Shown one piece after another: positions 20,001 through 54,909 of a stretch of 64,000 nt of DNA. The translations under genes were made by a program, and so were the position numbers. The notes under the pieces were generated by a model. It saw only the letters and a list, made by a program, of their open reading frames with translations, was not told the DNA's origin and searched no databases. Within the stretch, counting starts at the first letter, position 1, and the number at the start of each line of letters is the position of its first letter. The stretch lies in NCBI GenBank assembly GCA_964187785.1, contig OZ076409.1, positions 66,094,001 to 66,158,000 on the forward strand. Reading direction: 5' to 3'. Origin of the DNA: Amphiscolops sp. MND2022. Lineage: Eukaryota.

Positions 20001-22260
20001 ATTGGGCGTATTCCTGTTTGTGTTAGGTGATACCCTAACCACTCAACTTCATTTTGTGCGAACTTGCGTTTTTCCCATTTTAATCGTATGTTTGCTTCGT
20101 CAAGTTTTTCTAGTACTTGTTTTACTCGTGCGTAATGATCTGTTTGGATACCTTTGGTCAGTATTAATATGTCATCTAAGAAGACATACGTATTCGCAAT
20201 GTTGGAAAGTTTTTTATCCATAACTTTTTGGAACTCTGTTGGCATCATTGTGAGTCCATAGAACCCAGTGATGAAGCGGTATGTACCTGTTGCCTTGCCA
20301 CCTATTATTTGAAAATTACAGTGGCGTGCAATTTCTTCGTCTAACGGTACTGTGATTACAACTGGTTGGATAAATTGTTTATCCGTCACATCGGTTACTT
20401 TTTTGATGTGTCCTTCATTTAATAACCTTTCATTTTCTTCTTGTACCGCGTCTTGTAGTTGGATAGGAACTCGTCTACCCTTTTGTTGCGTTATTTTGGC
20501 TTCTGGTTTAAACTCAATTTTTACTGTATGATTGCGAATTTGTCCTTGTCTAGTGAATAAGGAGGAAAATTGGTTTTGTAATTATATCTTTTCGTTGTGA
20601 TTATCGTTATCACTCGAATCTTTTGAATTATTCTGTTTATTTGGTTGTTTAACATTTTGTTTAATTGTGTAAATAGCTTTGTTACCTTCACTTTTTGTTG
20701 GAGACACGAATTTGTAGTTGAACGCGTTCAGCCAATCACGTCCAATGAGTGATTTTGCGCCTTTGTCCGCAATCAGTATTCGCGCTTTATTTAGTTTGCT
20801 ATCACCAACTTCCAAATGGCAGAATATGTATCCCAATAATTGTAGTTTTCGTTTATTGAAGTCCACGTATTCTTCATCTTTTGGTAGTTCTCTAACGAAT
20901 AATGTTTTGCGCTTCATTATTTGTTTTATTTCATCGATTGCAAATATCGTTACTGGTGATCCAGAATCGACCATTGTTTGAAATGGGTTCCCATTGATCT
21001 TTCCTTTCATGGTGAACTGTCCACTTGTATCTCCTTCAATTGTGAGTACCACCTTCTCATCATCTACAATTGATTCTCCACTGCTTTCGCTCCATTCATC
21101 AATGCGTTGAATATGTTGTGGGGGTTTTGCTACTTTACGGCTTTTTGCAAATGTGCCTGCGCCTTTAGTTTGGCAACATCTAACGAAATGTCCTTTCTTG
21201 CCACATTTCATGCAAGTAACACCTAAGGCTTTACATTCCTTAAGGTGTTGAGGTGTGAATATTCCTTCGCATCTGAAGCACTTTTTGGTTGGGCCCCAAC
21301 GTTTATTGGTTTGGTTAATATTATTCACTTCCGCTGCTTCAGTTTTTATATTTGGTTTATCTAGCATACCAAACGATTGTTGTCTCAGTAAGCAATTGCG
21401 AATTGGATTGTTTCTGCTGCTGTTGCTTTTGGCTCAGTGCACAATTTTTGTTGTACAAATTGGTTTATCATGTTCACTGTGAAGACGTCTTTTACTAAGC
21501 TGTCTGTTATCGTGCCGAAATTGCATTTCGCTGCTAATCCATTTAATTCGTTCCAGAAGTTTCTCAATGATTCTCCTTCTTTTAGTTTTGAAGAATTTGA
21601 AGCGATCGAGGGTTTCATTCTTGGGTTTCTCAAAGCAATCTTTGCAGTTTTTAACAAATCTGGGAGTGACACTGTGGCAATATTGGTAGTGAGAAATTTG
21701 TCAGCAATTGATTTTCGTCCTGCCGATCCCAGAGCAAGGTAAAGTACGCTTATAGCTTTCTTTGTGGCTGGTATTTCGTCGAGATTACCCATTAAACTTT
21801 TGTCTTTGTTTCCCGTTTTTATTAATTCAGCAATGGATATGTTGTTTTTGGCCATTAATGCCACTTCAAATAAATCTCGCCATTTTTCCAATTCTAATGT
21901 AGGATTTTTAGATGCATCTTGCCAGTAAGTTGGAAGTTCTGCAATCGCTTGAGATCCTCCCGAAGATTCGGCTCGCAGCGCCATGTTTTAGGGTTTCTCT
22001 ATTCTCAATAATAGTTACTCTGCTTTAGGTAACAAGAGAGGGTTGAGCAAGATTCTATTCTCGATCTAGACCATGTGGCAAACTGATTTACTATCTTCAT
22101 TATGGTCTATAGTTTTGCTGGTACTATTGGCCAACATTGGTAACAACAAAGACAATTGACAAATGTATAAATGAACATAATATGATTGACAGTTTGTTTA
22201 CAGTTTGATTGTTTTTTAATTTAAGTTTCTTTTGACTTCTTTTGTGACAGCCCTGCCACA
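17058..22260 (-). mobile_element. Gypsy-type LTR retrotransposon, internally deleted/decayed (5.2 kb)
   Basis: 277-bp LTRs (21984-22260 and 17058-17334; TGTGGC..AAAACA on -; 4 differences), PBS TGGCGCTGCGAGC immediately after the 5' LTR, PPT AGAAGGAGGAG at 17335-17345. Confidence 0.93.
17417..21984 (-). pseudogene. gag-pol of the small Gypsy element (disrupted)
   Basis: gag with zinc knuckle CMKCGKKGHFVRCC, protease VDSGS, RT FLDD (part of RT deleted after PVVITV), RNase H CDAS/SDH, integrase H..HPG..CPEC and DDE core; several stops and frameshifts. Confidence 0.9.
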
Positions 22261-22480
22261 CTATGCACCAACATTTCGCTTTTTCAATTGGATTTTGTCC
22301 AGATACCCATAAGATGCGTTCTAAGTTTGGCGGCAATTCGCAGCCACGAAGCTTTGCACGTTTCATATGGAAGCAGTTCAATAGTCAAAAGCAGTTGAGT
22401 TTTCATCAATTCTACCGCCGTTTGAAAGCAATTAAACTCCATTTTTAAGTCTCAAAGTACCTTCATGTTCAGTGTGCAAT
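22261..22480. repeat. Right copy of the 220-bp direct duplication
   Basis: Matches 16838-17057; begins at the first base after the LTR. Confidence 0.9.
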
Positions 22481-23182
22481 TTGACTAACGGTGATTACAT
22501 AAGCTGCGTACTTGAGAAATTAACACAGAAAAACAAAGTGATAGAGATGGTAAAGAAGTAGAAACACTTTCAATTGTAACTCAAATAGTGGCAGCTAATT
22601 AATTCTATGAAGTTCTTCCAAGCAGACTCCCGGAATTTTCTATCCTCTGTTCAAAAAAACATTGCATGCATGGAAGCAGCATGAAAAACTTCACAGCTGG
22701 TTCAACTAGGAAGCCTTTTAGATATTTCAGAAGACTGCACTTTTTGAGTTTCAAGCGCGTGCCAACTTTAGATTTTCCCGTATAGTCTTTTGGGAACGTG
22801 AATGAAATCAAAGTTTCTTTTCACTTCATCGATCCGTGATTTCGAAAACGAAAATTTGCTAATAAAAGTTGAATTATAACATATGAAATCGCAGGAATGA
22901 TATCTAAATACATCAGGAATATGATCTAAAATCACTAGGAATATGATCTACAATCAATTTTAATATGATCTAGAAGCACTGGAATAATTTCTAAAATCAC
23001 TAGGATTAAGATTTGAATAAAATTATTCGTTATTTATCCTTGTAGTTTGAAAATGGGTCGGACATTGTCGATATATGAGACTGTAATTATTTTTTGAATT
23101 TTTCCCAACTTCTTATACGTTTATTTGAGAAAATAAATGTTGCAGCATCACTGTCTCTTCCTCTTCAGCGGTGTTATGACAG

Positions 23183-26937: not shown

Positions 26938-27193
26938 GTGAGCTTAAAGGGTGCAATTAATTAAAATAAGCCATAACATTACCGAAGATCCTTACTGATA
27001 TTCAGACTCTTCATTGTAAATAATAAATTATCAATCGTTCAATCAAAAGAAGCATTAGATATACGTAATGTCAGCTATCTACGAATGTTAAATGGTCAGC
27101 CACTACAGTTTCTGAAATGATTATTAAGGCATTTGAAAACCAAAATACTCAATCACCAATTGAAGTCATTTATAATTTTCAAATCAAATCCGA

Positions 27194-28670
27194 TGTCGCA
27201 GGCTGCCGCCTGCGATGGCCTGACATACCAGATCACTCCAGAAGGTGATATGACAGCGCCTCTACCCGGAGTACTACCCATATAGAAGAGACTTAAAACA
27301 CTCAGAAACAATTTCACTTAGTTATATATTTTAATATTTTACTGATATGATAAATAATCTGATCATTGTGAGCAGTTTAACTACAATTGTTGACCTAAGG
27401 TCAACTTGACGGCATGTGCTTACTTGTGAATATAGTATTATTATTTAACAATACATTATGTTATTTATGTTATAATCCACCAGTTGTGAACTAGTAATCT
27501 AACGTGTAGCTAATTGTTTGCTGTTAGTGAAGTATAAATAATTCTGAGCAAGTGCTAATGTAAACTGACAATAAAGTAGGAAACGCGTTCAACTGGTACA
27601 GCGCTGCCGTCAAGTTGACGCGTAGTCCGAATTGGCGTTAGCCAATCAAATTGCAGTTACTAATATTTTACTGCCGCCGCTTGGACCATTGGTCCATTTA
27701 GCTCAATATCGTTCTGATTGCATGAAATGTTATTGTTGTCATGTAAACTTTATACTTTGTTCATTGTTGTTACTATTTATAGAACCTATGACGTGTTGTC
27801 ACATGTAATCTCAGTTGCTATATTTAGAATTATGATGTAATAGTGATGTCATTACTATTTTTACCCTATGACACCCTAAATATTGAGTGTCATGCGGGTA
27901 GGAGTATATATACGAAAGCTCAGTTGCATTTAAATCAATCAATCAATATACCACAACCTCAATACGAACAATTCCGTTACAGTCCTTCAATTTGACAATC
28001 TATTATTGAACTAGATTTCCTTTTGATATGCCTTCAACTAGAAAGCAAAAAGCGAAAGAGAAACGCTCGAGACAATCTGACGTAATGTCGGATATTGAAA
28101 ACTTAGATGTGATGCTAGGGAATTATGCAAACAGTGATATTAGAGACCGAGATATTGTAGATCAAATAGAAATTGACCCTGAGTCAAGTAGACGGCAACC
28201 AGGTTTTGGTCAAGAAGAAAGTAACTATAGGTCTCAATTGAACACTAACTTGAGTGAGAATAGTGAAATCACTGTAGAAACTAGTAGAGCAATTAGTTCA
28301 GAAATTTCCTCACAAATGTCGAGAAAATTGGAAGAGATGAAGTCTGATTTAAATTCTCATATTTTGGAAGTTATAAACTCAGCCATTGATGAAAAGATAC
28401 TTCCTAGTATTGAAAATGTAATTGCAAACAAAAGGGAGACAAAAAATGCAAAATGGGACCTTCGGTCAGATGGACGGCATCCAGATAGGAATATCCAAAT
28501 GACTCAGAATTCGGACCTTGAGTCACATGGACGGCATAAAAGTAAATTTTGCCAGCAGGTCCAGGACTCAGGCGAGAACTTCCCTAAACTAATCGCAACT
28601 TCTAGTAACCAGAATAATCACTGTAGGGAAAATCCAAATTTCGATCAAAGTGATGATGAAGGTTACGACA
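27194..28670 (+). repeat. 5' LTR (1477 bp)
   Basis: Near-identical to 41775-43254 (about 10 substitutions and one 3-nt indel by eye); TATA-like TATATATA near 27905. Confidence 0.97.
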
Positions 28671-29818
28671 TGGTGACAGGAGCCAACCTTACCCCACATT
28701 TGGTCCCAGAATTCCTGACCGGACGGCCCATGCAATCCCGAAACACTATTCCCCTTCCAAATCCTAGCACTGACGATACGCTGGAAACAACCCTCCCAGC
28801 TCAGCAAAATCCAATTTCAATCAACACTCAGGAGACGCCCCGCGAACCTCCAGTCGACCCCATCAACCGTCTTGCAGATGTCATTATGGGGATGAACACG
28901 AAACAACCATCTCAAACTCTGATGGTACGCCCAGTCAGTACGACCACACTGACGTTTGACGGGAAATCTGAAAAGTTCGAACTGTTCGAAGATCTTTTTC
29001 ACACGATGATAAAGATGCAACCGGACATGACGGAAACAATGAAAATCAACCATTTTCACTCCCTGTTGCGCAAAAACGCGCTACAGACCTTTCGCAACAT
29101 CAATTCAACCAACAGAAAAACCCTAGAGGACATACTAGCAGTCTTCCGTAGGAAATATGTCAAACCCGAATCTCAGGCAACTGCCAAACACAAATGGAAC
29201 AAAATGGTATTTGATCCAAATACCATGAAATTGCCTGATTTCCTCGAAGAACTTAACCAAGGTGCTGAAAAAGCCTTTGGGGAACATGCCCAAGCAATGA
29301 TTGACAGTTTGCTTTATGCTAAACTACCACCTAAACTGAAACGTTCAGTTAACATGGCGCGACTTGAAAACGCTACGTATGAAGAGATTGTCACACATCT
29401 CGAACGAGAATTAGAACTGAATGGACTTGAGGAAGGTGACGACATTCACGTCCCCACAATGTCCACTGCCCCCACAGCAACACGACCGGGAACTGGTCTC
29501 CTTTCATCCGGCATCGACCCAAACATTACTTGCAATTATTGCAAAAAACCTGGGCACGTCAAAGATGACTGCCGCAAACTCAAAAGAAAGGAGGAACAAA
29601 AGCGCAATGGCGGACAGTATACGAAGAAAGAATATCCCAAATGTCCAACTTGCGACAAAACGAATCACCCGGCGGAACGGTGTTGGAAAGGCGCTGGAGC
29701 CCACCTCAAGCCCAAAAACCTCAAATTGGATAATTCCAAAACCGAGGAAACTCCGATGAGTCAAGATGACTCCAATAACAAACCCACTACTTCTATTCTC
29801 AAAAATTCAAAAAACTAG
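28028..29818 (+). CDS. gag: Gag (596 aa), starting inside the 5' LTR
   Basis: Capsid-like region (FDGKSEKFELFEDLF...) and two zinc knuckles CNYCKKPGHVKDDC and CPTCDKTNHPAERC; intact. Confidence 0.92.
   Translation: MPSTRKQKAKEKRSRQSDVMSDIENLDVMLGNYANSDIRDRDIVDQIEIDPESSRRQPGFGQEESNYRSQLNTNLSENSEITVETSRAISSEISSQMSRKLEEMKSDLNSHILEVINSAIDEKILPSIENVIANKRETKNAKWDLRSDGRHPDRNIQMTQNSDLESHGRHKSKFCQQVQDSGENFPKLIATSSNQNNHCRENPNFDQSDDEGYDMVTGANLTPHLVPEFLTGRPMQSRNTIPLPNPSTDDTLETTLPAQQNPISINTQETPREPPVDPINRLADVIMGMNTKQPSQTLMVRPVSTTTLTFDGKSEKFELFEDLFHTMIKMQPDMTETMKINHFHSLLRKNALQTFRNINSTNRKTLEDILAVFRRKYVKPESQATAKHKWNKMVFDPNTMKLPDFLEELNQGAEKAFGEHAQAMIDSLLYAKLPPKLKRSVNMARLENATYEEIVTHLERELELNGLEEGDDIHVPTMSTAPTATRPGTGLLSSGIDPNITCNYCKKPGHVKDDCRKLKRKEEQKRNGGQYTKKEYPKCPTCDKTNHPAERCWKGAGAHLKPKNLKLDNSKTEETPMSQDDSNNKPTTSILKNSKN
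28671..28682 (+). other. Primer-binding site
   Basis: TGGTGACAGGAG directly after the LTR end; resembles the complement of the 3' end of eukaryotic tRNA-Leu (TGGTGTCAGGAG). Primer identity is an inference. Confidence 0.75.
29809..29815 (+). other. -1 ribosomal frameshift heptamer A AAA AAC
   Basis: Immediately before the gag TAG; pol is in the -1 frame. Confidence 0.75.
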
Positions 29819-32800
29819 ATTTGCCACGACTCCAGATTAATGAAAAACTACTTGTCAGACAATATTTAATATCTGACCCTCCTACTATCTATTATACAGA
29901 ATATTATTCCTCCATTAAAGAAAATTCATCAGCTGACTGGCAGCAGCAGGTGAAACAAACTCCTACCAATTTACACAATTTGGACCTTCAGTCCAATAGA
30001 CAGCACTCTAACACTATGACTATTCGCACTCTTCCCCTCATAGATAACTATAATCCCTATTATCCCGACCCAGACTTTGGTTTCGACCCCTATTGGGACG
30101 TTCACATCTACAACCAGCATCATCTACACTTCTACAAAAACTTCACCAAAAATGCTGCAGATATCGAACCTGATCAACACCATATTGATCAGCTACAGCA
30201 TACCAAACTATCCATGGCCTCTGTGGACCCCTGGCAAAAGGGGCAGATTAACAACCACCCACCAATCCAGGAGGAAATCACACAAGAACTTCCACACAAT
30301 GGACCTCTGGTCACATTGACGGCAACAGTGGAAGAACGATATGTGAACACGCTGATCTCACGAAATGGTGAACCTGACTATGTCCCGTTGACAACCAACT
30401 TGGGGCTCAAATATAAACGACGCATGCTCTGCTTTCCAATGGATTTTGGCGAACTAACATTAGATGGCCTTGTAGACACGGGAGCCCTATCTAGCGCGAT
30501 CCCAGAAGCTGATCTACGTAAAATCCGATTACTAGCCCCTCAGTCCATAATTAAAGAGGGCCCAGCACCCAACTTCCAAATTATGGTAGCTAATGGACAG
30601 CTGGAGAATCCAAAGAGCACCGTTGAACTCAAATTCGAGGTCGGGGACTTCGATTTCCATGAGATCTTCATTGTTATGGAAAAACTTACAAGTCCGCTCA
30701 TTGGTCTCTCGTTCCTGCAACGGAACAATACCATATTGGACATGCGACAGGGAATCTTAAACTTTCCATTCTTTTCCATGCAATTAAAAACAGCTGACCA
30801 TAAGTACACCAATGTCATGGAACCTATCTGTGCGCGGGAGGACATAACTATTCCCCCCAATGACAGACATATGGTCTCCATGTCCTCACAACTATATGAC
30901 GACACAAACGTCACCGGAATCCTTCAACCGAGCAATGACCTTGCAGAAGATGGTGACATAACCTTCTGCGCTGCTCTCGTCACACTGACCCAAGGTCAGG
31001 TATCGATCCATGTCAAAAATTTCACTGACCAGCCATACACCATCAAAAGAGGCTCGCACATTGCAAATTTCTCTGTTCTCACCCCAGAACAAATGAAATA
31101 CGTCAAACCCATTGACCCAGTAACCACCTGGCACTTTTTGAAAGATAATCCGGAAAATGCTGCATACTATGCCAGTAGCCTCATCAAATCCCCGAAAAAT
31201 AGCGAAGACAGTCAGAACTATTGGTTCCCGACTCCAGAAGAACCAGTGGACCCTCAAACGCATACACCAATACAACAAAGAATCCTCAGGGAATTACGAA
31301 GCCTCCAGGATTTAGAGAAACTCAACCCCCAGGACGACCCTGAGTCCAGGAAACAGTTTCTTGCTAACTTTGACTGGACTGACTCAACGCTAAATCCGGT
31401 TGAAATTGCCCAAATTGAGGAAATACTTGTCGAATTTCACGACATTTTTGCAAGGCACCGCTTTGATATAGGAATGAACGAGGACTTCAAAGTCACAATG
31501 ACCCCAAAAGACGACTCTCCCGCCTACAGTCAAAGCCTACCTACCCCTATCAACCTCAAAGAAGACATTCTGTTGAATTAGCACTACTCCACCGCTATGG
31601 GATCATAACAACACTTCCGTTTTCCAAATATGCGAGCCCCATTTTTGCCCAGAAAAAACCTAATGGCAAATTACGACTTTTGGTTGACCTCCGAAAAATC
31701 AACAATTTGATCTTCGACGATAATATCAACAACAACCATCCTGTCAGCACATTAACGGATGCAGCGCAACACATTTCAGGCAAACGATTATTTTGCAAGC
31801 TCGACTGTTCTCAGGCATACCACTGTCTGCAGATGGCGGACCAAAGGTCCATAGAGATGTTGGCATTCAATTTCGCCAGTTGAACCTTTGCCTATCGCCG
31901 ACTTGCGCAAGGTCTGAGCCGAGCCCTATCAGCTTTCTCAAGTTTTATGCGTGAATACCTGGATAAAGTGATTAAAGCGGATCAATGTGCCCAATATGTC
32001 GATGACAGTGGGATTGCCGCCAACAGTGCCACTCAACTCATCAACAACTTGCGAGCAACATTTGCATGCATCAGGACCGCGGGTCTCAAATTAACGATGC
32101 ACAAATGTCACTTCGGAGCCAAAGAAATTGACTTCCTGGGACGCACCATCACTCCTGAGGGAGTGCGGCCGCAACGACCCAGGGTCCAAAACTTTCTGGA
32201 GAAAACGAATTTTCCGAAATCCAAAAAAGCTCTTCATCGATATTTGGGATTTTTAAACAACTACCGCAATTACATTCCACGGCTCTCTGAAAAGCTAACA
32301 CCATTCTTCAAGCTGTTGAAAAATGATTCCAAAGTCATGGTGACCCCTGAACTGTTAGAACAATTCACCGAGATCAACAAAGCTCTTGACCGATGTTGTG
32401 AACTCGCACTCAAACAACCTCTGCCCAACAAACAGATAGCCCTGATGACTGATGCTAGTTTTTCGGCAGCAGGTTATGCAGTTCTCATCGAGGATGATCC
32501 AATGGAAAAATATAGTTCAACGCGCAAAGCCTTTGCACCAGTAGCATATGGATCCAAGACCTTTAGTCCCGCCCAGTTGAAAATGTCCATCTATGCGAGA
32601 GAATTCTTAGCAATATTCTTTGCCTTCAGGGAGTTTGGACACATCTTCTGGGGGACCCCGACACCGGTGATCATTCTAACAGACAACAAATCAGTCACTC
32701 GCTTTTTTTTCAGACGAAAATTATTCCACCAACGCTATGGAACGCGTGTGACTACGTTATTCAGTTCAGCTTCACGATTGCCCATATACCAGGGAAAAAC

Positions 32801-34984
32801 AATACTGCCGCAGATTATTTGTCCCGTCTTGAAATCTGTCCTAACGAAAAACTTGTACTCCGCATACGAGAGGACATTCCAACTACACCCATTGAACTCA
32901 ATGTCCAATCAGCGGGAGTGACCGAAGAGGACCAGATATTCTACACGGACGACGAAGAAGAAACTGAGGAACAATTATGGCAAAGAAAAAAGGAAGCCAG
33001 GTCAAATCCTACAAATCAACTACCTGATATTACATTGGACAAACTCAGTCTACATAAAAGTACCCAAATCCAAACACCAACTTTGCAAAAACTAGCGAAA
33101 CCAATCACCATGGCTATTGAACAAAACAATGACATCACATTGCAACAACTACGCCTCAAATTACAAAAAGAAGAATACTCTGAAACCATCTTACAGCAGG
33201 ATCCACGTTACCGACATTACTGCCGTCAACTTGACCGTCTGTCCGTTCATGAAGATATCATCTACAGAGACTATTATGACGAAACCGGCAATGTCCAATT
33301 TCGCCAAGTGCTATTACCGAAACACCTTGTCACTGAATTACTTCAATCCTTACACGGCACTGCGAACAAACATCCAGGAATTTCCAAAATGCTTCATGAG
33401 ATACGTCAAAAATACTATTACCCAGGCGTTGCAAAAATTGTCAAAAAATGGGTCCAAGGGTGCGAAATCTGCATCCGAGACAAACGAATTGCCAACGCAT
33501 CAATAACACCCGAATTACTGAATTTGCCCGAATGGGACCTAGGTCCGGAAGACGCCTAACAAATAGACCTGTTACCGAACCTCCCACCCAGTGGAGGATA
33601 TGAAAACATCATAACAGCTTTAGACGTCTTCTCCGGATACCTTTTTGCATATCCTGTAACGGACGCGTCGGCAATCAGTACAGCAAAAGTTCTCATTGAC
33701 ATTATGACCCGACACACGTATCTACCAACGACACTTATCACAGATAAAGGAACGGCTTTTACGTCTCGCGTAGTAACAGAAGTAGCAAAAATTTTGGGCA
33801 TCACACTTCAATGTGCGACCACAAAACATCCTCAGACCAAAGGTAAACTAGAGAGAACCCATGCCAGCCTCAAAGGAAACCTCAAAATGGCATCAGGAGA
33901 GTACAGGCGCCAGTGCCATAAATACCTCCCTTTGGCTGTCCTTAATTACAATACAACCTACCACTCTAGCCTAGGTTGCGAGCCATCTAGAATTTTTCAT
34001 GGCAGAGTGCCTTATAACATCCTGGACCATCGGTTAGGTTTGAACCCCAATCCAAAAATCATACCAACAACCGACTTTGCTGAAGAACTACAACGCCGCA
34101 CTCAAAACCTTATTGATAAAACAAAGAAAAACATTATGCAATCATACTTAAAGTACAAAGACTATTACGATCGGAAGGCTAAAGCAGCTCCCTTAGAACA
34201 AGGAGATTTTTGCTTCATTTTACAGCCACTAGCCGATCATCAGGGTTCTAAAATCCCATTTCGAGAATTTCGATGGATCGGACCATATGTCATCGAAAAG
34301 GTCCTTCCTAACGAGAATTATAATATGCGCAAACTGAATTCTAACAAAACGCAGATTTTACACCGAAAACGCCTTAGGAAATATACTCCAAATACTACAT
34401 TACAAGATACTCGCCCTGAAGGAAATTTACAAGCCGATGATGAAATTATTATCCCACAAGACGACCTGTACATTATTTCATGGGAAAGCAATTTTGATGA
34501 TTTCCCTCCTAGTACTGAACAGCAAATCAATCCTAACGATTCTCCTACTCATTTTAATGAACAAGACGCTATAATCACAGATTTGGACCTTCGGTCCACG
34601 CGGCGGCAAGAAAATACTGACGCTGCGGATACTGATTCACACTCGCGTGAAGTAGCTGAAGCGGACCTTCGGTCCGCGCGACGGCAAACAAATACTGAAT
34701 CTGATAATTTTGAACAAGACGCGCGTGACCAAACTACTGAAGACCGTCAGTCCACCCGACGGCAAGAAAGTACCGAATTTGAAAACGATGAAATAGTTAA
34801 TCAAGACTCGTCTGTTGATGAAAATTCTGATTATTCAACTTATAGGGGGAATGATACAACCGTGCCCGATGTATTAAACGAAGAAACTGATGATTGTGTT
34901 GTAGAAAACGAAAGTCCTAGGGGAGGGAAATATAACTTACGCCCCAATCCTACCCCCAACTTTACTGATGAATACAGATACTAG
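29815..34984 (+). pseudogene. pol: Pol (protease, dUTPase-like remnant, RT, RNase H, integrase), disrupted in this copy
   Basis: LVDTGA, LDCSQAY, YVDD, TDAS, TDNKS, H..HPG..CEIC, integrase core. Lesions: 1-nt deletion near 31571, TGA 31881, frameshift in T-run near 32703-32710, TAA 33557. Confidence 0.93.
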
Positions 34985-35226
34985 TCAGAAAATGTAAATT
35001 CACTGGCCCGTTGCATTCTTTTTCTCTCCTCTTACTGACACTGACTGTCAAATTATTTTTTTCATGGGCCCTATCTGACTTTAAGTTTTCAATGCAGACT
35101 CAAACACAAGTGTCAAAATGACACAACTATAAAACAGACACGAAAACAACTCAAACAAACTCAAAAGAAACGAACAAATTAACAGATACATAAATACAAC
35201 TAAAAACAAATGTACATATGGCACAA

Positions 35227-38200
35227 TTAAACGTCTTTAGTCGATGAGCTAGTAGGAAGTTCACTATCAGATGGCCGTTTGACAGGGGAGGTTTTGGCAC
35301 TAGATGAAGGAAGACTTTTTGAAACTTTGCCGCCCTTTAGTCCTTTGAACCGCAGTTTACGAGTGTCACCTTTCTGCTTCACCAAAACAGGATGTAATGT
35401 TGCAAGGATTTCTGTGCGGTTGAACAAGTCTAAGCCGTCCCAGGGACTGTAGGTGTCTGTAAAAGCTGAACCTCCAAATGTAGGCTCGAAAGCCAGAAAG
35501 TCGCTGATTGGAGTGGCAGTGGTAAGAGCATCGACACTACGCCCAACATTCATGAAGAAAGATTGGACAGGCAATATTGTATCAATCAGCTTACTTTTGG
35601 GGTCATCTTCACGGACGAGTCCGAACTTCACTGGAGGCATGGCACTGTAACCCTGATCAAGGCAGAGGCAACTGAGTTTAAAGATCCGTGCCAAATGAGG
35701 ACGTGACAACAAAGTAACATGTCCAGATTTGAATGCAACTGCATCAAGAATAATGACCCTGGGTTGGTCTAAGTCAGGGTACTCTTTTCGAAGTTCATCA
35801 AGGAAGGACAAATACTCTTCAGTGCAAATGGATTCGTCGTCGGCTTGATAATATCCACGCACATGAAAACTACGAAACAACTGCTTAAAACAATACAGGG
35901 CCTGGCTAAGAGGGGAACGAAATATAATATCGAGATCAAAGGAGCCCATTCCCTTTACTATATCCGAGGTCAGCTGTAAATTGCTCTGGGCAGCATGAAA
36001 CAAGTATGCAACGTAGCTGCGGCCTAATCGTCCGAATTCCTCTTTGCCTTGGTTTACCAATTTGGGCAAATTGGCTCTACTGGTCTTCTTCTCACTCAGC
36101 TCCTTCTCAGCCTTAATTTTACAAGCAGTATTGAGGCGCTGATCGAGTTTACATCTGGTTATAAAATCAGGGACGGACAAAGCACGAGCATCTGAGACTG
36201 ACACGCCGAGGATTCCAGATAAGTCAGTTTCTTGGGGCAAGCTCTTGGCCTTGATGCATTGTCTTCCGAGTTTAAACAGAAATTGACAAAGTTGGCAATA
36301 AATATGGAACCCGTGGTCCCGACGTTCAACAAGATGTGGTACGAAACTTGTTGTATCTAAATAAACATATTCCACCATATACAAGAGGACGATTTCATTA
36401 ACCATTCAACCAAAGGGTAATACTAACAATCTCTAACGAGGCGATAAAATAGCTCCAGTCGGCACAGAAACAATTCATCTTGTATCATGGCTCGTTCCAA
36501 GTTTTGGGGCTTAAAACAACAATTAGCCTAATTAAAACGGAGTAAGTTGGACCTAAGGTCATTACGACGGCAAGAACTTACCTGTTTCCTCACTCCCATC
36601 ATCTCATGTGGAGGAGCGTGTTTGTTCAAGTATTCAAGTACCTTGGGCCAATTGGTAAGCAGCTCTTGACATAAGGTGGGAAGCTTCGCCAACTCAATCT
36701 GACAGGTGCGCACAGCCTGGAAAGAGGAATTTATTGAGTCGGGTGAATACTTCTGGCCTACGAAAGAGAAAGAAAGGACATTACCTTAGCAAGTATGGGT
36801 GTCATGAGGGTCCAGTCGCAGTCCAAGCAGCCGCCCAGAAAAATTATGAGGTATTTCAGCACCGAGTGGAAATCTATGCGTCCAAAGACGCTATAACTCT
36901 CCTTATGCATCAATCGGGCAATTGAAAACTCCTCGAATCTGAGGGGGCGCTGAAGTCCATACTTGAAATAAGGAAAGTTGTCAACCAGCTGCACTGTTTC
37001 AAGGGTACTACCAGAACAGCTGACGAGATTCGGACTGGTAGACAGAGCAGCCATGACGTAACTGATCAGGCACTGTTCCGCTGATGACTGGCCAAGGACT
37101 CTACCGGTTCGCTTGAGAAAGACTAGACAAAGTTCATCCTTTCTCCAAAAGCGTATGAAGACGAGCAGGAACACTCCCTGCTTGACAAAGTCCAGAGAAT
37201 ACTCGTCGGAAGCTACTACGTGTTCAGCAATGTCACGGATAGTTAGGAGGAACAGATGATGGAACAGAGCCTGGAAAACACGACCCCAGTGTTACCATAT
37301 GCGAAAAGCAAGATTTAAACCAACTAAGATGACTTAAGGTCAGTAGGAACAGAGGAAGTACTAACCGACAATCGTTCTTTACTCCAGTTGAAGTCGGTGA
37401 AGAGCGACTGGTGGTTCACGATGACGCCGACGTCTCGCCAGAAACTCTTCAAAATACTGATATCACCTTGGCTTCGGAGGTAGTTGCCAAGAACAGATAT
37501 CTGGATTCGTACACGATTCTCTGACGAAGATGCCATGTAATCGGTACCCTGGATATATTCATCGTAAAACGGCAACTTCTCGCCTATGTCCACGAGTTGT
37601 TCTTCAATGAAATAGGGCAGTTCTAGCTGAAGCTCAAAGGGTGTGAGCAATTTACCGTCTCTTCCTCGGACATGGTGCTTGACGACCTTGGTGATCGGAT
37701 CTTCAGTTGCCAGATGTTCATAACGCCACCTCTGGTCTTTTCTGAGATGACGTTCGGTAGCATGATGTCTCAGAATCTCTCGTGCCCCACGACCGTAAAT
37801 GGATATGTTGCCCTTACATATCTGACAATAAAATTTGTAGGGGTTCCACCGAGGGTCAACGGGTCCCGACACAAAGGTCTTGGTCCACTCCATTCCCTTG
37901 AAGTAGGCTTCTTTCATTATTTTGCACCCCCGAGGCACTCGATGTCTACTTGGCCCAGAATTGCGGGTTGGCGTCTTCCTTGATTTTTTCTGTCTCACAA
38001 TTTTGGTTTTCTCAGCCACAGCTTCAGCCTTCAACCCAGCCAACGTTTGTGCCCCAGGACTCTCAAGTTGGTTAGTAGCGTCAAAAGACCCAAGGTCAGC
38101 TCGACTGCAACCTGGTGGGCCTGCGGGAGGTGGAGTAAATGGATGACTCTCTGAATCTGAGTGCTCATAAGAGTATCCGATGCTGGCAAAGTCATCAGTG

Positions 38201-39501
38201 CTTTTGATAGCGCCACTTGTATCGCTGCCATGATCTGATAAAAACCCAGATTGGGATTCTCCGCCGCTGACTCGATCTACAGACTTTCTTGGCTTGGTGT
38301 TGACACCTGAGTTCAGATGAGGGGTCCCGAGGTTAAGCCTACCAGCTTGCTGGATTAGGTTCTCCATGACTTTGAGTGACGATTTGACGGCTTCGTCTGC
38401 GACAACCTTCAGGACATGACAAACCTGTCCTTCATTTAAGTCTAACGTTGAGTGCCCAGCTGGCAATTCTACTGGAGTAGCGGCTTCAAAATATTCCTTT
38501 ATTAGCGCACGACTACTGGCACTCAATTGAGGATCTCGTGGTACCGCTTCAGGGAAATCTACCGAAGTATTGCTAGCTGTATCGCATACACTGAATACGT
38601 TTGCACTAGTTGGGGCAAACAATGCATCAGCAACGGTAGATCCAACGAGTCCTTCCGAATCCTGTCCAACGTCACTACAGATTCGGGCAGGCGACTTTGG
38701 TCTGCGTTTGTCCCCGGAATGAGGAGCCCGAAAATCATCTGAAAACTCATTTTCACTCTCAGTCAGGGTTGGACGTTCCATCTGATCTGCGGCAACAGAC
38801 AAAACTCGTGATTCATTCCCCAGCTTGATGCTAAGTTTTAGAGCCTTCGCCTCAGGGGGCCCGTATCCGGATTCTAGATTGCTTTTAAAGGGCAACTTTG
38901 GGGCATCGAGGAAGGCAACTTCGGACACGGAATCGGTCTCCATCTCCTCCTGCCTTGCGACATCTTGACCGGGAGCAAGCTCAATCGCAACGCTTTCGCT
39001 AAACTTGTCAGCAGTGCCGCCACCTTGACTAGAAGTTCCCACTTCTGCAGAACAGCCCAACTGTGCCCACTTCCTGACAATATATTCTCCGCAACTCTCA
39101 TCAGTACTGCTACTTTCAACAAGGAAGCTCCCTGCGGTGAGGACGGGAGTGGTGTTGTCTCCAGACACAACGTTGGTCGGTCCACTAGAGTCTAGTTGCA
39201 TTTGACTGGAGTGTGGGTTTTCCACGAGCAAATCCTCTTGCGTGGCCTCAGACTCTGGATTAGTGGGGCTGGCAGCGACAAACTCTTCTGGGTTAGCAGA
39301 GTTGGGGCTTTCAAGATCTAAATTGCAAGCCGGGGCATCTCCAGTAAGTGGTCTCTCAGAGTTCGATGCTGCAGTCACAAACGAATCATTACTATCCATC
39401 CTTTCCTCATCAATACTGCGTCGGGGAGGTTGGTCATTTGACTCATTGCCTAAACGGAATGAAATAAATAAACGCGGTTCACTTCCTGAATATGAATCCA
39501 T
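35227..39501 (-). CDS. Antisense five-exon gene (~1322 aa): acidic N-terminus, BED-like zinc finger, degenerate hAT-transposase fold
   Basis: Exons 39501-37366, 37270-36785, 36716-36582, 36509-36428, 36356-35227 join through four GT-AG introns (95, 68, 72, 71 nt; phases 0,0,0,1) into one uninterrupted 3969-nt frame. Zinc finger FYCQICKGNISIYGRGAREILRHHATERH. Confidence 0.85.
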
Positions 39502-40284
39502 CTTGCCGCTTTAAAACAAACTCTTCCGGAAGTTCACTTGATACAATGTTCATGCTGACAGCAAACATTTCACGATGGAGGAAGTAACTTAGTTGAAATT
39601 ATGAGCTCTGATCAAGCCAGATTTTAACACCATTTAAAGAACCAACCTGTTGTTGAATCCATAGTTGATTAGCAGAATTGATGTGACCCGCGAATTGCGT
39701 ACTGTTGTTCATCGGGTAAACTGATTCGATGACTGTGTCTCAAGTACTCTCCTGAATGATGATTGAGCCGGTTACTGTTGAGATAACCCAAGCGGACTGC
39801 GAGACTGTCAGTTGAGGAAGAAAACAGATCTTCAGAACACCCAGTAAGGTAGCGAAACGCAGAGCAACACTAAGAATTTGAATTAAGACAATTAGCTAAT
39901 CAGGTTGCTTTCCTGCCGGGGATTTGGTGAACTGCGAGAAAGATGTATTTGTCAAAATGTAACCCGAGGTCAGAGAGACAATCCTGATCACTAGGTAATA
40001 CAGTTTAGCTCAAGTGATACTTCACGAGGAAACAAATGACGTAGGAGTAAGGTTCAAATACAGCAACACAAGGTAGTGGACTCAACGTCAACCTGACGGC
40101 AAAGTATTACTAGTTCACAATCAAGTGTTATTTAACCATTGCGTGCAAATTAGACTATGAGTCATTCAGACGGCATGACGTTTATTGTTACCGGATGTAC
40201 TTCTTTCTCACTTACACTACTCTATGAACACTCCGTTGACTAATTACTAGTTCTTACCATCAACTTAGAGTCTAAAATTCCTCA

Positions 40285-40402
40285 ATATTACTATTAATAT
40301 TATTATCATTATCATTGTTATCATTATCATTATTTTTATTATTATTACTATAAAAATAGTTATTATTACTGTTACGATTACAATTATGTCAATAATTATT
40401 AT
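40285..40402. repeat. AT-rich (ATT/ATC/ACT)n low-complexity tract between the divergent accessory genes
   Basis: Imperfect trinucleotide run attattatcattatcattg... Confidence 0.7.
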
Positions 40403-40870
40403 TTGGATGTCGTGGCTACATGTAAGACTCTCTTTAATGCTACCATCTCCTACTTGTTGCTTTAATCAAGCTCTCTTATTACAAGTACATGGTATGGAAC
40501 CTGCCAGTGAAATATTCATGAACTTCACAATTCGTTGTTTTATTCCTTTTCATCACTTTCCCCTAAAAACACATCAAATTGCTTATCTCATTCTCCATTC
40601 ATGTAATTATTTGACAAATTTTGCCAGCTATTTTAGCATCACCTGATTGGCTATGCTATCATCTTTACTGCCGTCGAAGGGACCGACGGTCTTTCAAGTT
40701 ATTTGTTGAATGAGAATTATCGGAGACAACACTTAAATTGTCAAGTGACGCCTTTGAAGAATGAAATAAAACAACTTGAAGAGGCTATTAACAAGCTTCA
40801 CAGATTAATTGCTTGAAAATTATTTGAGACTCTGCTCTTAATCGAAACCTAAAAAGGAAAACTTGAAACT

Positions 40871-41866
40871 ATGATTCGGGGAAAAACCCCACTACCAACT
40901 CCCGCCAAAATTGGGGTTGGACCTAAGGTCAGACGGACGGCAAAAGTTTACTTCTCATCCTACCGTTCTGAAAATCAGTCGCCTAGAATTCAAGCTAGCA
41001 AAATTGCGAAAAGGATATTCCTCAATCGATACAACGCTGAGATGGCTCTACAATTCAACTGCGAATTACTTCCCAGATCGCTAGTGGATCCAAGCTACCA
41101 GTCGTCAGATGAAGATATGGACGTCGACTCCATAATTTCCGCTGACGATATTCTAGATGCTAACGGCGAGGACGACGATATACAAGTTTTGGCTTGCTAC
41201 CGATACAATACTGAATTCCCTCCACAATTAGCGGCAGGAAGGGCCATGACAACCGAGCTAACTGAATGTCTCAACGATCTTAACTTGCCCATCAGTGAAC
41301 CCACTGAATCAGTGAGTACGTTTACAGAACCCTCAAATTCATTGATTGATTGGTTCGTTGGGAATCCACCCCTCACATATTATGGGCAATCTGCTAGTGA
41401 CTACCCTATTGCTCAATGTAGCAGATTGGAACCGGTCCCTAAATCTCCGCAGTCTCCGCCACTGTTTGACCAAAGGCCAACTTACGACAGCCTGCAAGGG
41501 GCAGAAATGCCATTTGGATCAAGCTGGTCCGATAACCCACACATAACTGGTTTAGGCATCAGCACTAGCGGGAACTGCGGACAACCAAACGAAGTTTATT
41601 ACACAGGCTGTGTTGTCTGTGGGAAAGACTACCCGGCAATTAAAGAAGAGATCACCCTTGGCTATTTAGAGAAGACACACTTCCCGGGCGAACCATACGA
41701 GTCAAGACTAGCCAAGCGCAATGCCTTCGAAGCAGGAATGAAGGCTGGGTCCTTCATTCTCGTACCCAGGGGAGTGTCGCAGGCTGCCGCCTGCGATGGC
41801 CTGACATACCAGATCACTCCAGAAGGTGATATGACAGCGCCTCTACCCGGAGTACTACCCATATAG
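40871..41866 (+). CDS. Sense accessory ORF of unknown function (331 aa; alternative start 41042), ends inside the 3' LTR
   Basis: Open frame with an acidic segment and a CVVC motif; no signal peptide or transmembrane segment, so not env-like; last 92 nt lie in the LTR. Confidence 0.7.
   Translation: MIRGKTPLPTPAKIGVGPKVRRTAKVYFSSYRSENQSPRIQASKIAKRIFLNRYNAEMALQFNCELLPRSLVDPSYQSSDEDMDVDSIISADDILDANGEDDDIQVLACYRYNTEFPPQLAAGRAMTTELTECLNDLNLPISEPTESVSTFTEPSNSLIDWFVGNPPLTYYGQSASDYPIAQCSRLEPVPKSPQSPPLFDQRPTYDSLQGAEMPFGSSWSDNPHITGLGISTSGNCGQPNEVYYTGCVVCGKDYPAIKEEITLGYLEKTHFPGEPYESRLAKRNAFEAGMKAGSFILVPRGVSQAAACDGLTYQITPEGDMTAPLPGVLPI
41768..41774 (+). other. Short polypurine tract
   Basis: AGGGGAG directly before the 3' LTR. 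Confidence 0.6.
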
Positions 41867-43254
41867 AAGAGACTTAAAACACTCAGAAACAATTTCACTT
41901 AGTTATATATTTTAATATTTTACTGATATGATAAATAATCTGGTCATTGTGAGCAGTTTAACTACAATTGTTGACCTAAGGTCAACTTGACGGCATGTGC
42001 TTACTTGTGAATATAGTATTATTATTTAACAATACATTATGTTATTTATGTTATAATCCACCAGTTGTGAACTAGTAATCTAACGTGTAGCTAATTGTTT
42101 GCTGTTAGTGAAGTATAAATAATTCTGAGCAAGTGCTAATGTAAACTGCCAATGAAGTAGGAAACGCGTTCAACTGGTACAGCGCTGCCGTCAAGTTGAC
42201 GCGTTGTTCGAATTGGCGTTAGCCAATCAAATTGCAGTTACTAATATTTTACTGCCGCCGCTTGGACCATTGGTCCATTTAGCTCAATATCGTTCTGATT
42301 GCATGAAATGTTATTGTTGTCATGTAAACTTTATACTTTGTTCATTGTTGTTACTATTTATAGAACCTATGACGTGTGGTCACATGTAATCTCAGTTGCT
42401 ATATTTAGAATTATGATGTAATAGTGATGTCATTACTATTTTTACCCTATGACACCCTAAATATTGAGTGTCATGCGGGTAGGAGTATATATACGAAAGC
42501 TCAGTTGCATTTAAATCAATCAATCAATATACCACAACCTCAATACGAACAATTCCGTTACAGTCCTTCAATTTGACAATCTATTATTGAACTAGATTTC
42601 CTTTTGATATGCCTTCAACTAGAAAGCAAAAAGCGAAAGAGAAACGCTCGAGACAATCTGACGTAATGTCGGATATTGAAAACTTAGATGTGATGCTAGG
42701 GAATTATGCAAACAGTGATATTAGAGACCGAGATATTGTAGATCAAATAGAATTTGACCCTGAGTCAAGTAGACGGCAACCAGGTTTTGGTCAAGAAGAA
42801 AGTAACTATAGGTCTCATTTGAACACTAACTTGAGTGAGAATAGTGAAATCACTGTAGAAACTAGTAGAGCAATTAGTTCAGAAATTTCCTCACAAATGT
42901 CGAGAAAATTGAAAGAGATGAAGTCTGATTTAAATTCTCATATTTTGGAAGTAATAAACTCAGCCATTGATGAAAAGATACTTCCTAGTATTGAAAATGT
43001 AATTGCAAACAAAAGGGAGACAAAAAATGCAAAATGGGACCTTCGGTCAGATGGACGGCATCCAGATAGGAATATCCAAATGACTCAGAATTCGGACCTT
43101 GAGTCACATGGACGGCATAAAAGTAAATTTTGCCAGCAGGTCCAGGACTCAGGCGAGAACTTCCCTAAACTAATCGCAACTTCTAGTAACCAGAATAATC
43201 ACTGTAGGGAAAATCCATTGGATTTCGATCAAAGTGATGATGAAGGTTACGACA
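41775..43254 (+). repeat. 3' LTR (1480 bp), containing a duplicate of the first ~215 gag codons (ORF 42609-43259)
   Basis: Direct repeat of 27194-28670. Confidence 0.97.
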
Positions 43255-43467
43255 TCTGATCTAATATAAATAATAAACAGATGACATAAGGAAAACAACC
43301 GTTTCTCATTGTAAAAAACTTTGAATAAATGAGAGTAAAAAACTTCTCATTTGAAACGGTTATATGAATCAAAGTCAAATCCAGCTGGAAGTTTTTTCCA
43401 TCAGAATGTAAAATTACTTAATATGGATGAAAAAGAATTCATTGAGTATTCAGACCTTTGTTCGCAG

Positions 43468-53258: not shown

Positions 53259-54909
53259 CCCAGTGTAAAAACTCCTGGAACTCTTGATAAGAATCTTGGA
53301 TATTCTTGGATTTCTTGGTAAGAATCTTGCCAAGACTCTTACCAAGAAATCCAAGAATTTGCAAGATCTTGCAAGATCGTGCCAAGAAATTCAAGAAATC
53401 CCAAGACTCTTACCAAAAATCCAAGAATTTGCAAGATCTTGCAAGATCGTGCCAAGAAATTCAAGAAATCCCAAGACTCTTACCAAGAAATCCAAGAATT
53501 TGCAAGATCTTGCAAGATCGTGCCAAGAAATTCAAGAAATCCCAAGACTCTTACCCTAGTTGAGACTGCAGGAACTTTTTACATGCTGCAGGCCTGCATG
53601 CAGGGTAATTGTTTATAAAACCTAGAAAATTCAGGGTAATTCAGGTGGTAAATCTTGTAAAATTACACTGCATTTTCCACTACTGCAATTAAATTTGAAA
53701 ATAGATACAACATCATCACCGACACGACCTTATTGTATTTACAATTTGCTTTCTCAACTACTCATCTGATGTGATCACCGCGTCTCAAATAGGACGCTAA
53801 ACATGACGGTATATTGCAGTTTATTAGGTGACTGAAGTAATTTTGCATTAAAGTGGCTGTTAAACTGAGAGCAATTTATTTGCTTTTAAAATTAGAACTG
53901 CTTCTTCATGAAACCTGCAAAACTTCAAGGCGTAAAATTGCCGCCAAAACTTTGATGAATCTTTCAAGCAGCTTGATAAAAGTCGAATTCAACAGGTAAA
54001 TATTTTCGCATGAAAGTTTCCGTAAGAGTTTTAGAAAATCATGATAAAAGTTGCTGGCAACATTAAAGTACATGCAAAAAGTTCAAGAAGTTTCAACAAG
54101 GGTTAGCAAGAAAACCAAGAATTTGCGAGATCTTGCAAGATCGTGCCAAGAAATTCAAGAAATCCCAAGATTCTTATCAAGAGTTTCAAGAGAAACCAAG
54201 AATAGGCAAGAAAATGCAAGAGAATTCAAGATCCCCGTTTAGAATCTCAGTCATCATAAAACCTTCAGAAGTCTCGGTAAATGAGCTAAAAATTATCAAA
54301 AATAACCAGCATTATGAAATTAGGATCTAAAAATTACAAATTTAGACCCAAATCTGATCACGAAAGATCGAAAAATGCAGCTGAAGTTGGAAAATCATTC
54401 AATTTTGCTCTCATAACTGCAAATTAAGATCTGAATTAAGCAAAATCATGATCTAAAAGGATTGAATACAAGATCCAATTGGTATGTATCAAGGATCTAA
54501 AAGTTACATGTTCCAAACCCAAAATTGATCATATCAGGTTGAAATTTCGCAGAATTGGTAATTGCAGACAATTGGTCTCTGAAATTGGCCGTAAATTTAC
54601 CCAGAAAAAGGTTTTACAGAGAAAATTTTACAGATTTTTCCATAACATGGCCAAAAATTACTGTAAACAGGCCTAATTCAACAATTTGTGAGATCGCACT
54701 GAATTTTGAAATAATCGAAATTTTCACCTCCCGGATTTTTTGATAAGAATCTTGGCATTCGTGGAGAATCTTCGTGGAGATTTTCACGAAATTCAAGATT
54801 TTTTGGAAGAAGTAAGACTTTCCAAGATCTTCAAGAAATTCAAGAGGTAGCAGGATTTTGTAGGAAAATCCAAGATCTTGGTAAGAAATCCAAGAGTTTT
54901 TACACTGGG
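53259..54909. mobile_element. Related CCCAGTGTAAAA-TIR element with ~70-bp internal tandem repeats and a nested MITE
   Basis: TIRs CCCAGTGTAAAAACTC / GAGTTTTTACACTGGG; ~70-bp unit repeated 53330-53553 and resuming after 54102. Confidence 0.75.
53554..54101. mobile_element. MITE (CCCTAGTTGAGACT termini), copy 1
   Basis: CCCTAGTTGAGACT ... AGTTTCAACAAGGG with TTA on both sides; inverted homologue at 55900-56464; related fragments near 14493 and 16754. Confidence 0.8.

Follow-up and report, generated by a model that had tools for sequence, protein, structure and literature searches.

It is an open question what function the extra antisense open reading frames (ORFs) carried by some LTR retrotransposons have (PMC7264820). 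In plants, the Gypsy elements Tat/Retand, Grande and RIRE2 are described as carrying, downstream of pol and ahead of the 3′ LTR, a conserved ORF in antisense orientation, and the Grande product is described as nuclear and made from its own promoter, with a role in regulation proposed (PMC7264820; PMC11963269, PMC4408406). HBZ of HTLV-1 and APH-2 of HTLV-2 are likewise described as spliced antisense genes that encode nuclear regulators and lie in the 3′ half of their LTR element (PMC3185765). A different kind of precedent comes from plant DNA transposons. VANC, an anti-silencing accessory protein encoded by VANDAL (Mutator) elements, binds subfamily-specific short motifs dispersed through its element, introns included (PMC5735166). 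TnpA of Spm evolved from a transposase, and transposases are reported to serve as sequence-specific activators, with catalysis lost on co-option (bioRxiv 10.64898/2026.08.24.746577). As these sources present them, VANC and TnpA act on DNA methylation, and their motifs lie mainly in non-coding tandem repeats. LTR elements of bdelloid rotifers have captured extra ORFs too, of the env, GDSL lipase or DEDDy exonuclease types, and the main text of that report does not mention a transposase (PMC5408684). Here, we describe a 16-kb LTR retrotransposon with a conserved antisense accessory gene, likely an inactive hAT derivative and predicted to bind a motif of its own element. We give an even chance to the reading that it regulates the transcription of its own element, most likely so as to keep copies active.

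The window analysed is a 64,000-nt stretch of Amphiscolops sp. MND2022 (GCA_964187785.1, OZ076409.1:66,094,001-66,158,000, forward strand), within which all positions are counted. The element is bounded by a 5′ LTR of 1,477 bp (27194..28670, +; TGTCG...CGACA) and a 3′ LTR of 1,480 bp (41775..43254, +), which are separated by 11 substitutions and a single indel of 3 nt (0.7% apart), and by a target-site duplication (TSD) reading TCCGA on the left (27189..27193) and TCTGA on the right (43255-43259). Pfam gives the domain order gag-PR-dUTPase-RT-RH-INT, in which the dUTPase lies between protease and RT, as in the bdelloid elements. On the evidence of its LTR ends, its TSD and the order of gag followed by PR-RT-RH-INT, the element is of the Gypsy type. 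The gag gene (28028..29818, +), with a CCHC knuckle and a weak match to DUF1759 (E 5e-6), starts within the 5′ LTR, which holds its first ~214 codons, and a putative TGG-led primer-binding site (28671..28685, +) abuts the LTR end within gag. The pol region (protease, dUTPase, RT, RNase H and integrase; 29779..34984, +) is made up of several broken frames in the window copy. A second accessory ORF in sense orientation, ORF3 (40871..41866, +; 331 aa), crosses a polypurine-tract-like stretch (41761..41774, +), which ends in CAGGGGAG, and runs into the 3′ LTR. It has conserved cysteines and no Pfam match, and is kept across the family. Judged by the 8,115 candidates of a first-look search and by the similarity of this LTR pair, this is a large family with recent activity.

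Between integrase and ORF3 lies the antisense gene (35227..39501, −), whose end is 243 nt away from the stop codon of integrase on the other strand. A first-pass annotation, made by a model from the letters of the window, had proposed that four short GT-AG introns join its apparently separate ORFs into one frame of ~1322 aa. The coordinates proved exact, and the five exons join without an internal stop into 3,969 nt encoding 1,322 aa, with a single terminal stop. Exon 1 (37366..39501, −; aa 1-712) encodes an acidic, Ser-rich, low-complexity N-terminus of ~500 aa with short conserved islands, a conserved helical segment (aa ~328-390), a basic, NLS-like patch (aa 498-525, 39% K/R) and a C2H2 (BED-like) zinc finger (aa ~559-585). 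The acidic and Ser-rich character, the basic patch and all peptides named in that annotation are present in the translation. Exon 2 (36785..37270, −; aa 713-874) contains what by eye resemble the core strands of a hAT RNase H-like fold, without the catalytic aspartates; exon 3 (36582..36716, −; aa 875-919) and exon 4 (36428..36509, −; aa 920-946) follow, and exon 5 (35227..36356, −; aa 947-1322 and the stop) encodes a helical domain. The introns measure 95 nt (intron 1, 37271..37365, −), 68 nt (intron 2, 36717..36784, −), 72 nt (intron 3, 36510..36581, −) and 71 nt (intron 4, 36357..36427, −). A further acceptor suggested 7 nt 5′ of the ATG did not hold up, as it varies among copies, and the AG immediately 5′ of the ATG is kept instead in 34 of 35 rows. 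A conserved block upstream of the ATG (39502..39700, −), containing TTCCGGAA, is a candidate internal promoter or 5′ UTR, and the antisense message would start at such a promoter just 5′ of the ATG.

This arrangement differs in several ways from its closest counterparts. The plant antisense ORFs encode another protein, Transposase_28/TRP28 (PF04195) or PMD, whereas exons 1, 2 and 5 gave no such Pfam match here. Four conserved spliceosomal introns are present in this gene, whereas the main text of the Retand paper does not mention introns (PMC7264820). Both the likely DDE-transposase origin and the candidate cis motif set out below go beyond what the cited papers, in their main accounts, report for plant antisense ORFs. 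HBZ, a bZIP protein of 206 aa, is transcribed from the 3′ LTR, whereas the present gene encodes a 1322-aa zinc-finger protein, has four small introns and likely uses an internal promoter.

The gene is found throughout the family. In a hand-picked sample that favours long open frames, it is accompanied by INT and/or ORF3, in antisense to them, in all 40 close copies and in 30 of 32 divergent loci, and one further locus shows an integrase end (31/32). Splice sites are also conserved. In the close copies, GT and AG are both kept in 37/37, 37/37, 37/37 and 36/36 cases for introns 1 to 4 (147/147), and in the divergent loci, where junctions were positioned by protein similarity alone, 114 of 128 are GT-AG and five more are exact intron absences. 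Intron lengths in the close copies span all three classes modulo 3, and identity drops to 52% in intron interiors, compared with 74% in exons. Identity by codon position is 83/90/47%, and pN (0.07-0.14) is far below a saturated pS (0.75-0.93) in all eight pairs compared. From these substitution patterns, the gene is under strongly purifying selection. The earlier expectation that antisense introns persist is confirmed by their retention across subfamilies down to ~33% protein identity. They presumably survive reverse transcription because they face opposite to the genomic RNA, and the rare exact losses (intron 2 in L118; intron 4 in L118, L122, L123 and L128) may reflect recombination with cDNA of the spliced message. 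Spliceosomal introns, it appears, can persist with rare exact loss in a reverse-transcribed genome when they are oppositely oriented.

An ordinary hAT transposon nested in one retrotransposon copy would be a natural first thought, given that hAT transposons, as counted by 150 scored PF05699 matches, are common in this genome. However, position and orientation are constant across the close copies and in 30 of the 32 divergent loci, and no row has aspartate at the presumed catalytic aspartate positions. The absence of terminal inverted repeats (TIRs) and an 8-bp TSD around the gene, remarked on in the first-pass annotation, is borne out by a systematic search in which none of 234 inverted pairs (at least 10/14 matching) had a TSD of at least 7/8. 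The constant family-wide position and the absence of TIR and TSD refute nesting, the probability of which we put close to nil. It is strongly supported by these comparisons that the spliced, selected gene is part of the LTR element and not a nested DNA transposon. Separately, the best inverted pair, 34999/40511, was considered as a relic TIR or as RNA pairing and rejected, as it is lost in other subfamilies. Two loci without INT or ORF3 matches in the first scan, L132 and L134, were considered as free-standing DNA-transposon relatives. This was also rejected: L132 has an integrase end and 18 kb of flanks without an ORF above 223 aa, and their sister L133 lies within a full element; we read them as moved fragments.

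Derivation of the protein from a hAT transposase, as originally proposed, is likely. Motif order, language-model neighbours and a weak colinear fold match to Hermes speak for it, but HMM and profile-profile searches do not. The named atlas neighbours (language model) of aa 515-712 all carry hAT-derived labels (SCAN3-like, FAM200, GTF2IRD2; zf-BED, DUF4371) with scores of 0.90-0.92; the best unnamed neighbour scores 0.96, and exon 5 has no atlas match. A model of exon 5 with a pLDDT of 83 (an earlier fold from 12 sequences, with a pLDDT of 45, was discarded) gave a weak colinear match to residues 367-569 of Hermes transposase (8edg_A; Z 5.1, rmsd 4.0, 144 residues). It is the longest alignment among 50 rows, at rank 19 and with a Z in the range described by the tool as common among helical models, and it ends beside the catalytic glutamate region, in line with the motif order. 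Foldseek, run with this model, found no match with an E of 0.001 or lower; the VIA second look was likewise empty. The finger, a beta-strand block, a helical block and a C-terminal helix follow one another in the order, and at roughly the spacing, seen in hAT transposases. In the zinc finger (C-x2-C...H-x5-H) the four C/C/H/H positions are invariant in 18 of 18 rows; its atlas neighbours are labelled zf-BED and zf-C2H2_12, and Pfam gives only zf-C2H2_ZN292, under its cut-off. A Tip-type hAT profile placed 2 of 7 segments in the expected register and the finger aligned to the BED finger of an Ac-type profile, both below significance. The Pfam hAT profiles PF05699 and PF14291 did not match the protein, PDB sequence searches gave no significant hAT match, the best hit to hAT ORFs of the same genome had an E of 0.065, and in hhalign comparisons with 111 Tip-type and 16 Ac-type sequences the probability was at most 0.3%, not above the reversed control. 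PF14291 had no match in the genome itself, where its control was likewise silent.

The gene could be real and still be a C2H2 finger protein of other origin that resembles hAT transposases by chance, which would fit the uniformly negative HMM and profile-profile tests, the weak fold match and the lack of an atlas match for exon 5. We regard this as improbable, given the hAT order and approximate spacing of the blocks and the agreement of two independent tools, atlas neighbours and fold match, in indicating hAT proteins. In the likely hAT derivative, the catalytic triad looks lost. With the register set by eye from hAT motifs, none of 20 rows has aspartate at site 1, and none of 21 at site 2. 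The earlier claim that the acidic positions look lost stands for these two sites but not for the ERxFS position, which by eye reads D-Q-G-Y-S in the window copy; of 22 rows, 12 have D there and 10 have T. CxxH and RW motifs are absent from the protein. The BED-like appearance of the C2H2 finger and the hAT order of the blocks behind it recall hAT transposases such as Hermes and the host-domesticated ZBED, FAM200, GTF2IRD2 and DAYSLEEPER genes, and many domesticated hAT forms lack catalytic residues. Unlike those genes, the present one is borne by a retrotransposon rather than fixed in the host, lies beyond Pfam and profile detection and has an N-terminal extension of ~500 aa. If the hAT origin is true, one class of mobile element, not the host, domesticated the enzyme of another.

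A dispersed motif that had escaped the first-pass annotation is a candidate target for the protein, read as a transcription factor. The spaced motif GAC-N5-GTC-N5-G[AG]CGGCA occurs 21 times in the 16-kb element (17 on +, 4 on −; range 27392..43117), at 27392, 27627, 27694, 28175, 28457, 28514, 30302, 33243, 34586, 34664, 34742, 36550, 40079, 40153, 40691, 40920, 41973, 42275, 42756, 43038 and 43095. The LTRs hold 11 of the 21 sites (six in the 5′ and five in the 3′ LTR), the divergent spacer between ORF3 and the antisense gene holds four more, and sites also fall within coding regions and in intron 3 (36550-36572, retained in 31 of 37 copies). There were none in 48 kb of flank, in 200 simulations or in 145 kb of hAT loci, and the genome-wide count is 4,349, compared with 15 for a reversed control pattern. 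At 13 homologous sites, conservation is 99.4% for the fixed letters, 77% for the spacers and 75% for the flanks. In distant subfamilies, different spaced palindromes take its place, GCC-N6-GGC and GTC-N5-GAC.

We consider it somewhat probable that the antisense protein binds this spaced palindrome along the element. The reader of the motif might instead be ORF3 or a host factor, with the antisense protein directed at something else, for example host genes or silencing machinery. ORF3 is an equally constant passenger (37 of 40 close copies) with its conserved cysteines, and neither the recombinants nor the finger residues pointed specifically to the antisense protein. On midpoint-rooted FastTree trees, the window-type motif tail appears to mark a single clade for the antisense gene but to be split for ORF3 and INT, a pattern of co-inheritance that linkage explains. 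Recombinants with a swapped ORF3/LTR segment retain the motif tails of the donor, and motif type does not follow cleanly from the finger residues (L140 combines RE with the GCC motif). Another reader is nevertheless rather unlikely, as the motif changes among subfamilies, which a fixed host factor does not favour, and a recognisable DNA-binding finger is found only in the antisense protein.

If the antisense protein is the reader, it may act after reverse transcription instead of regulating transcription, coating double-stranded cDNA for nuclear entry, end-holding or chromatin tethering. Sites spread beyond promoters over coding regions and both LTRs would suit such a role, as would the NLS-like patch and a transposase scaffold, since such scaffolds bind and bridge DNA. 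We find it unlikely, because the acidic, low-complexity N-terminus with its islands better fits the recruitment of cofactors, and the concentration of sites in the LTRs and the ORF3/antisense spacer also counts against it. The bound protein would rather regulate transcription of its own element, and by activation rather than repression. A motif-binding repressor or copy-number brake has a model in HBZ, a spliced antisense nuclear factor described as lowering sense transcription (PMC3185765), and could be aided by antisense transcription converging on the nearby end of pol. Yet the size and recent activity of the family speak against a brake, and motif turnover among subfamilies better fits a private benefit than a shared brake, so that repression seems a poor prospect.

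As with VANC, a short motif is enriched in the cognate element and differs between subfamilies, and, on the best reading, the antisense protein is a sequence-specific self-regulator of transposase origin, comparable to VANC or TnpA but placed in a retroelement. In contrast to those systems, the element here is a retrotransposon, the spaced palindrome also lies in coding sequence, the donor would belong to another element class and binding is predicted. With CpG depletion slight (o/e 0.8) and CpG transitions raised only 1.4-fold, this part of the genome shows few signs of CpG methylation, which makes a VANC-like role against DNA methylation doubtful. More tentatively, and at slightly less than an even chance, a retrotransposon lineage may have domesticated a transposase with introns, after which protein and palindrome co-diversified into subfamily-private codes in LTRs, introns and coding sequence, a VANC-like system across transposon classes. 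Because the candidate motif is precise and has natural subfamily variants, binding and regulation are directly testable.

Genes of this kind escape ORF-based repeat annotation. A literature search, whose scope excluded Repbase, Dfam, most subscription journals and supplements, returned no report of such an arrangement. Among 102 candidates, no annotated full-length relative (1247-3560 aa) was found at E 0.001 or better, and none of 83 pattern matches in JGI metagenomes was confirmed as a relative. Searches of a protein library for relatives outside this genome gave 514 matches for exon 5 and 429 for exon 1; the 10 that were looked up and 120 among the matches listed are ENA entries without a name.

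A 16-kb LTR element (27194-43254) carries the antisense gene (35227..39501) on its minus strand. The gene's four introns (37271-37365, 36717-36784, 36510-36581 and 36357-36427) sit where the first-pass annotation had placed them, all with GT-AG ends. The frame of about 1322 aa holds as well, the five joined exons giving 3969 nt and 1322 aa with a terminal stop only. Copies were sought in the host's own genome (eukaryotic, 1.07 Gb) using the conserved terminal part of exon 1 as query, giving 150 scored matches from 8,115 first-look candidates, which are not copy numbers. Forty of the 150 served as close copies, in a choice that favoured long open frames; three truncated ones were left out of the splice analysis. 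In the remaining 37, GT and AG are kept at 37/37, 37/37, 37/37 and 36/36 for introns 1 to 4, while intron lengths cover all three classes modulo 3 and identity falls from 74% in exons to as low as 52% in intron interiors. Codon-position identity is 83/90/47%, the conserved part is stop-free in 21/37, and pN is 0.07–0.14 with pS saturated in 8/8 pairs, a sign of strong purifying selection.

Of 231 matches listed to divergent subfamilies, 32 loci were analyzed, with junctions located by protein similarity alone: 114/128 are GT-AG, 8 are other, 1 is unscorable and in 5 the intron is exactly absent (introns 2 and 4 in L118; intron 4 in L122, L123 and L128). On these comparative grounds the introns are real, and the loci that lack an intron reproduce the predicted junctions naturally. 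The acceptor proposed 7 nt before the ATG did not prove invariant and varies among copies. What is kept upstream is the ATG, the AG directly preceding it, a 200-nt block and a conserved TTCCGGAA box about 25 nt 5' of the ATG, features that would fit a candidate internal promoter.

The host element has LTRs of 1477 and 1480 bp, set apart by a single 3-nt indel and 11 substitutions, is bordered by TCCGA/TCTGA and carries Pfam domains in Gypsy order (gag, protease, dUTPase, RT, RNase H, integrase), with pol split across several frames in this copy. The dUTPase domain (29779-31581, Pfam) lies between protease and RT; PMC5408684 describes it as rare in retrotransposons. Gag begins about 640 nt into the LTR (28028-28670 and 42609-43254), so the primer-binding site falls within gag and the 3' LTR bears a copy of the gag 5' end; this LTR gag piece is found in 34/40 close copies. 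A second accessory ORF, ORF3 (40871-41866, +), stands head-to-head with the antisense gene, overlaps the PPT and reaches 92 nt into the 3' LTR. It has no Pfam match, and a C-x2-C and a C-terminal block are conserved down to about 30% identity.

All 40 close copies have the antisense gene opposite to integrase and/or ORF3, each of which is present in 37/40. Searched by profile, the 50% library yielded 514 relatives, two of which led to the divergent subfamilies; there the same arrangement with integrase or ORF3 recurs in 30/32 loci, and one further locus has the integrase end. As earlier suggested, the gene is not enclosed by TIRs with an 8-bp TSD, which, with the fixed arrangement in copies, rules out a nested transposon. 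By its distribution in these loci the antisense gene belongs to the element family. Mosaic elements (L045 and L058 versus L125 and L126; also L049, L053, L057, L059 and L069) combine an antisense gene of one subfamily with an ORF3/LTR or integrase segment that nearly matches a different subfamily, indicating frequent recombination. Separately, L132 (G000:C2:29317905-29327804) and L134 are antisense-gene copies within a different multi-copy repeat of >9.9 kb, which has 99% and 95% copies elsewhere, 88-bp tandem arrays and perfect palindromes with arms of about 105 bp; the flanks (L143-L144, 18 kb) showed no large ORF.

The proposed hAT origin finds support in atlas neighbours, a fold match and layout, but not in sequence searches. 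Named atlas neighbours of aa 515-712 are hAT-derived families (scores 0.90–0.92; best unnamed 0.96), and an exon-5 model (69 sequences, pLDDT 83) can be aligned for 144 residues with positions 367-569 of Hermes transposase (Z 5.1, rmsd 4.0); no other of the 50 rows has a longer alignment, yet the match is only rank 19. By eye, against typical hAT motifs, the hAT order is kept from the finger through strand block and helical block to the final helix. Against this, there was no Pfam or PDB sequence match, no match to own-genome hAT ORFs and no Foldseek match; hhalign scores with hAT sequences (111 Tip-type, 16 Ac-type) were no better than those of reversed controls, although 3/14 segment tests against hAT profiles fell on the expected landmark. 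We consider the protein probably hAT-derived. It is unlikely to be a transposase at present because the catalytic sites appear replaced in the by-eye register: the loss of acidic residues noted earlier is seen at the first two sites (aspartate in 0/20 and 0/21 rows), and the glutamate site has D in 12/22 and T in 10/22. The N-terminus is long and acidic with short conserved islands; one, at aa ~328-390 (38330-38520, -), is predicted helical, stands out from the variable sequence around it, is present across the 82 aligned exon-1 proteins and has no family match.

A motif that the first-pass annotation did not include, GAC-N5-GTC-N5-G[AG]CGGCA, occurs at 21 sites in the element (LTRs 6 and 5, internal 10; both orientations), with none in the flanks (48 kb), in any of 200 Markov simulations or in hAT loci (145 kb). 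Genome-wide there are 4,349 exact matches versus 15 for the reversed pattern, and each of the 40 close copies has 4–15. Conservation over 13 homologous sites is 99.4% for the fixed letters, 77% for the spacers and 75% for the flanks; the full motif within intron 3 is kept in 31/37 close copies, with 14 spacer variants. Since half-sites are fixed, spacers free and either orientation used, this is the pattern of protein sites on double-stranded DNA. Middle-distance subfamilies have the GAC-N5-GTC core with different tails (15–30 sites per 9.9 kb versus ~2.5 expected), six distant loci use GCC-N6-GGC (8–13 sites) and two use GTC-N5-GAC (10–11 sites). This turnover by subfamily points to a reader encoded by the element, and among candidate readers only the antisense protein has a recognisable DNA-binding finger. 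Two comparisons between motif and protein did not single out the antisense protein: recombinant elements retain the donor's motif tails, and finger residues do not sort consistently with motif type. That something other than the antisense protein reads the motif seems unlikely to us.

The likeliest course of events is that a hAT transposase gene with introns was taken up, reversed, by an ancestral element. The introns would stay unspliced in the genomic RNA and so be copied. The gene would be transcribed from its own candidate promoter and then spliced; the protein would have lost catalysis, kept finger and scaffold and gained the long acidic N-terminus, and is predicted to bind the motif, keeping cognate copies transcribed. 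We give this proposal as a whole an even chance, and slightly less than that to the boldest version, in which domestication crossed transposon classes and a private DNA code co-evolves with the protein. Binding of cDNA by the protein for import or tethering is unlikely. Transcriptional maintenance would, by analogy, resemble the working of VANC and TnpA (PMC5735166; bioRxiv 10.64898/2026.08.24.746577); weak CpG decay speaks specifically against demethylation of DNA as the mechanism.

Placement resembles that of plant Tat/Retand/Grande antisense ORFs (PMC7264820, PMC11963269 and PMC4408406), but the protein here lacks a TRP28 or PMD domain. It also resembles the position of HBZ (PMC3185765); repression of the HBZ kind is a distinctly unlikely role. 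The gene lacks TIRs, and its protein appears to lack the catalytic triad. The gene is a member of none of the VANC/TnpA, Tat/Retand/Grande or HBZ groups. Topic searches of the literature, judged from the papers' listings, and passages of PMC5408684, PMC6431247, PMC13524379 and PMC13547354 showed no LTR element with an antisense gene that both bears introns and derives from a transposase. The antisense gene is real and unusual.

Elsewhere in the window, a second Gypsy-type element (16838-22481, -) with direct repeats, protease, RT, RNase H and integrase has zero GAC-N5-GTC-N5-G[AG]CGGCA sites. A LINE-like element (10549-14403, -) has an ORF1 with a PHD finger and an endonuclease-RT ORF2, and at 53549-56469 a 10-bp tandem array is framed by long inverted repeats with arms of 339, 126 and 86 nt.
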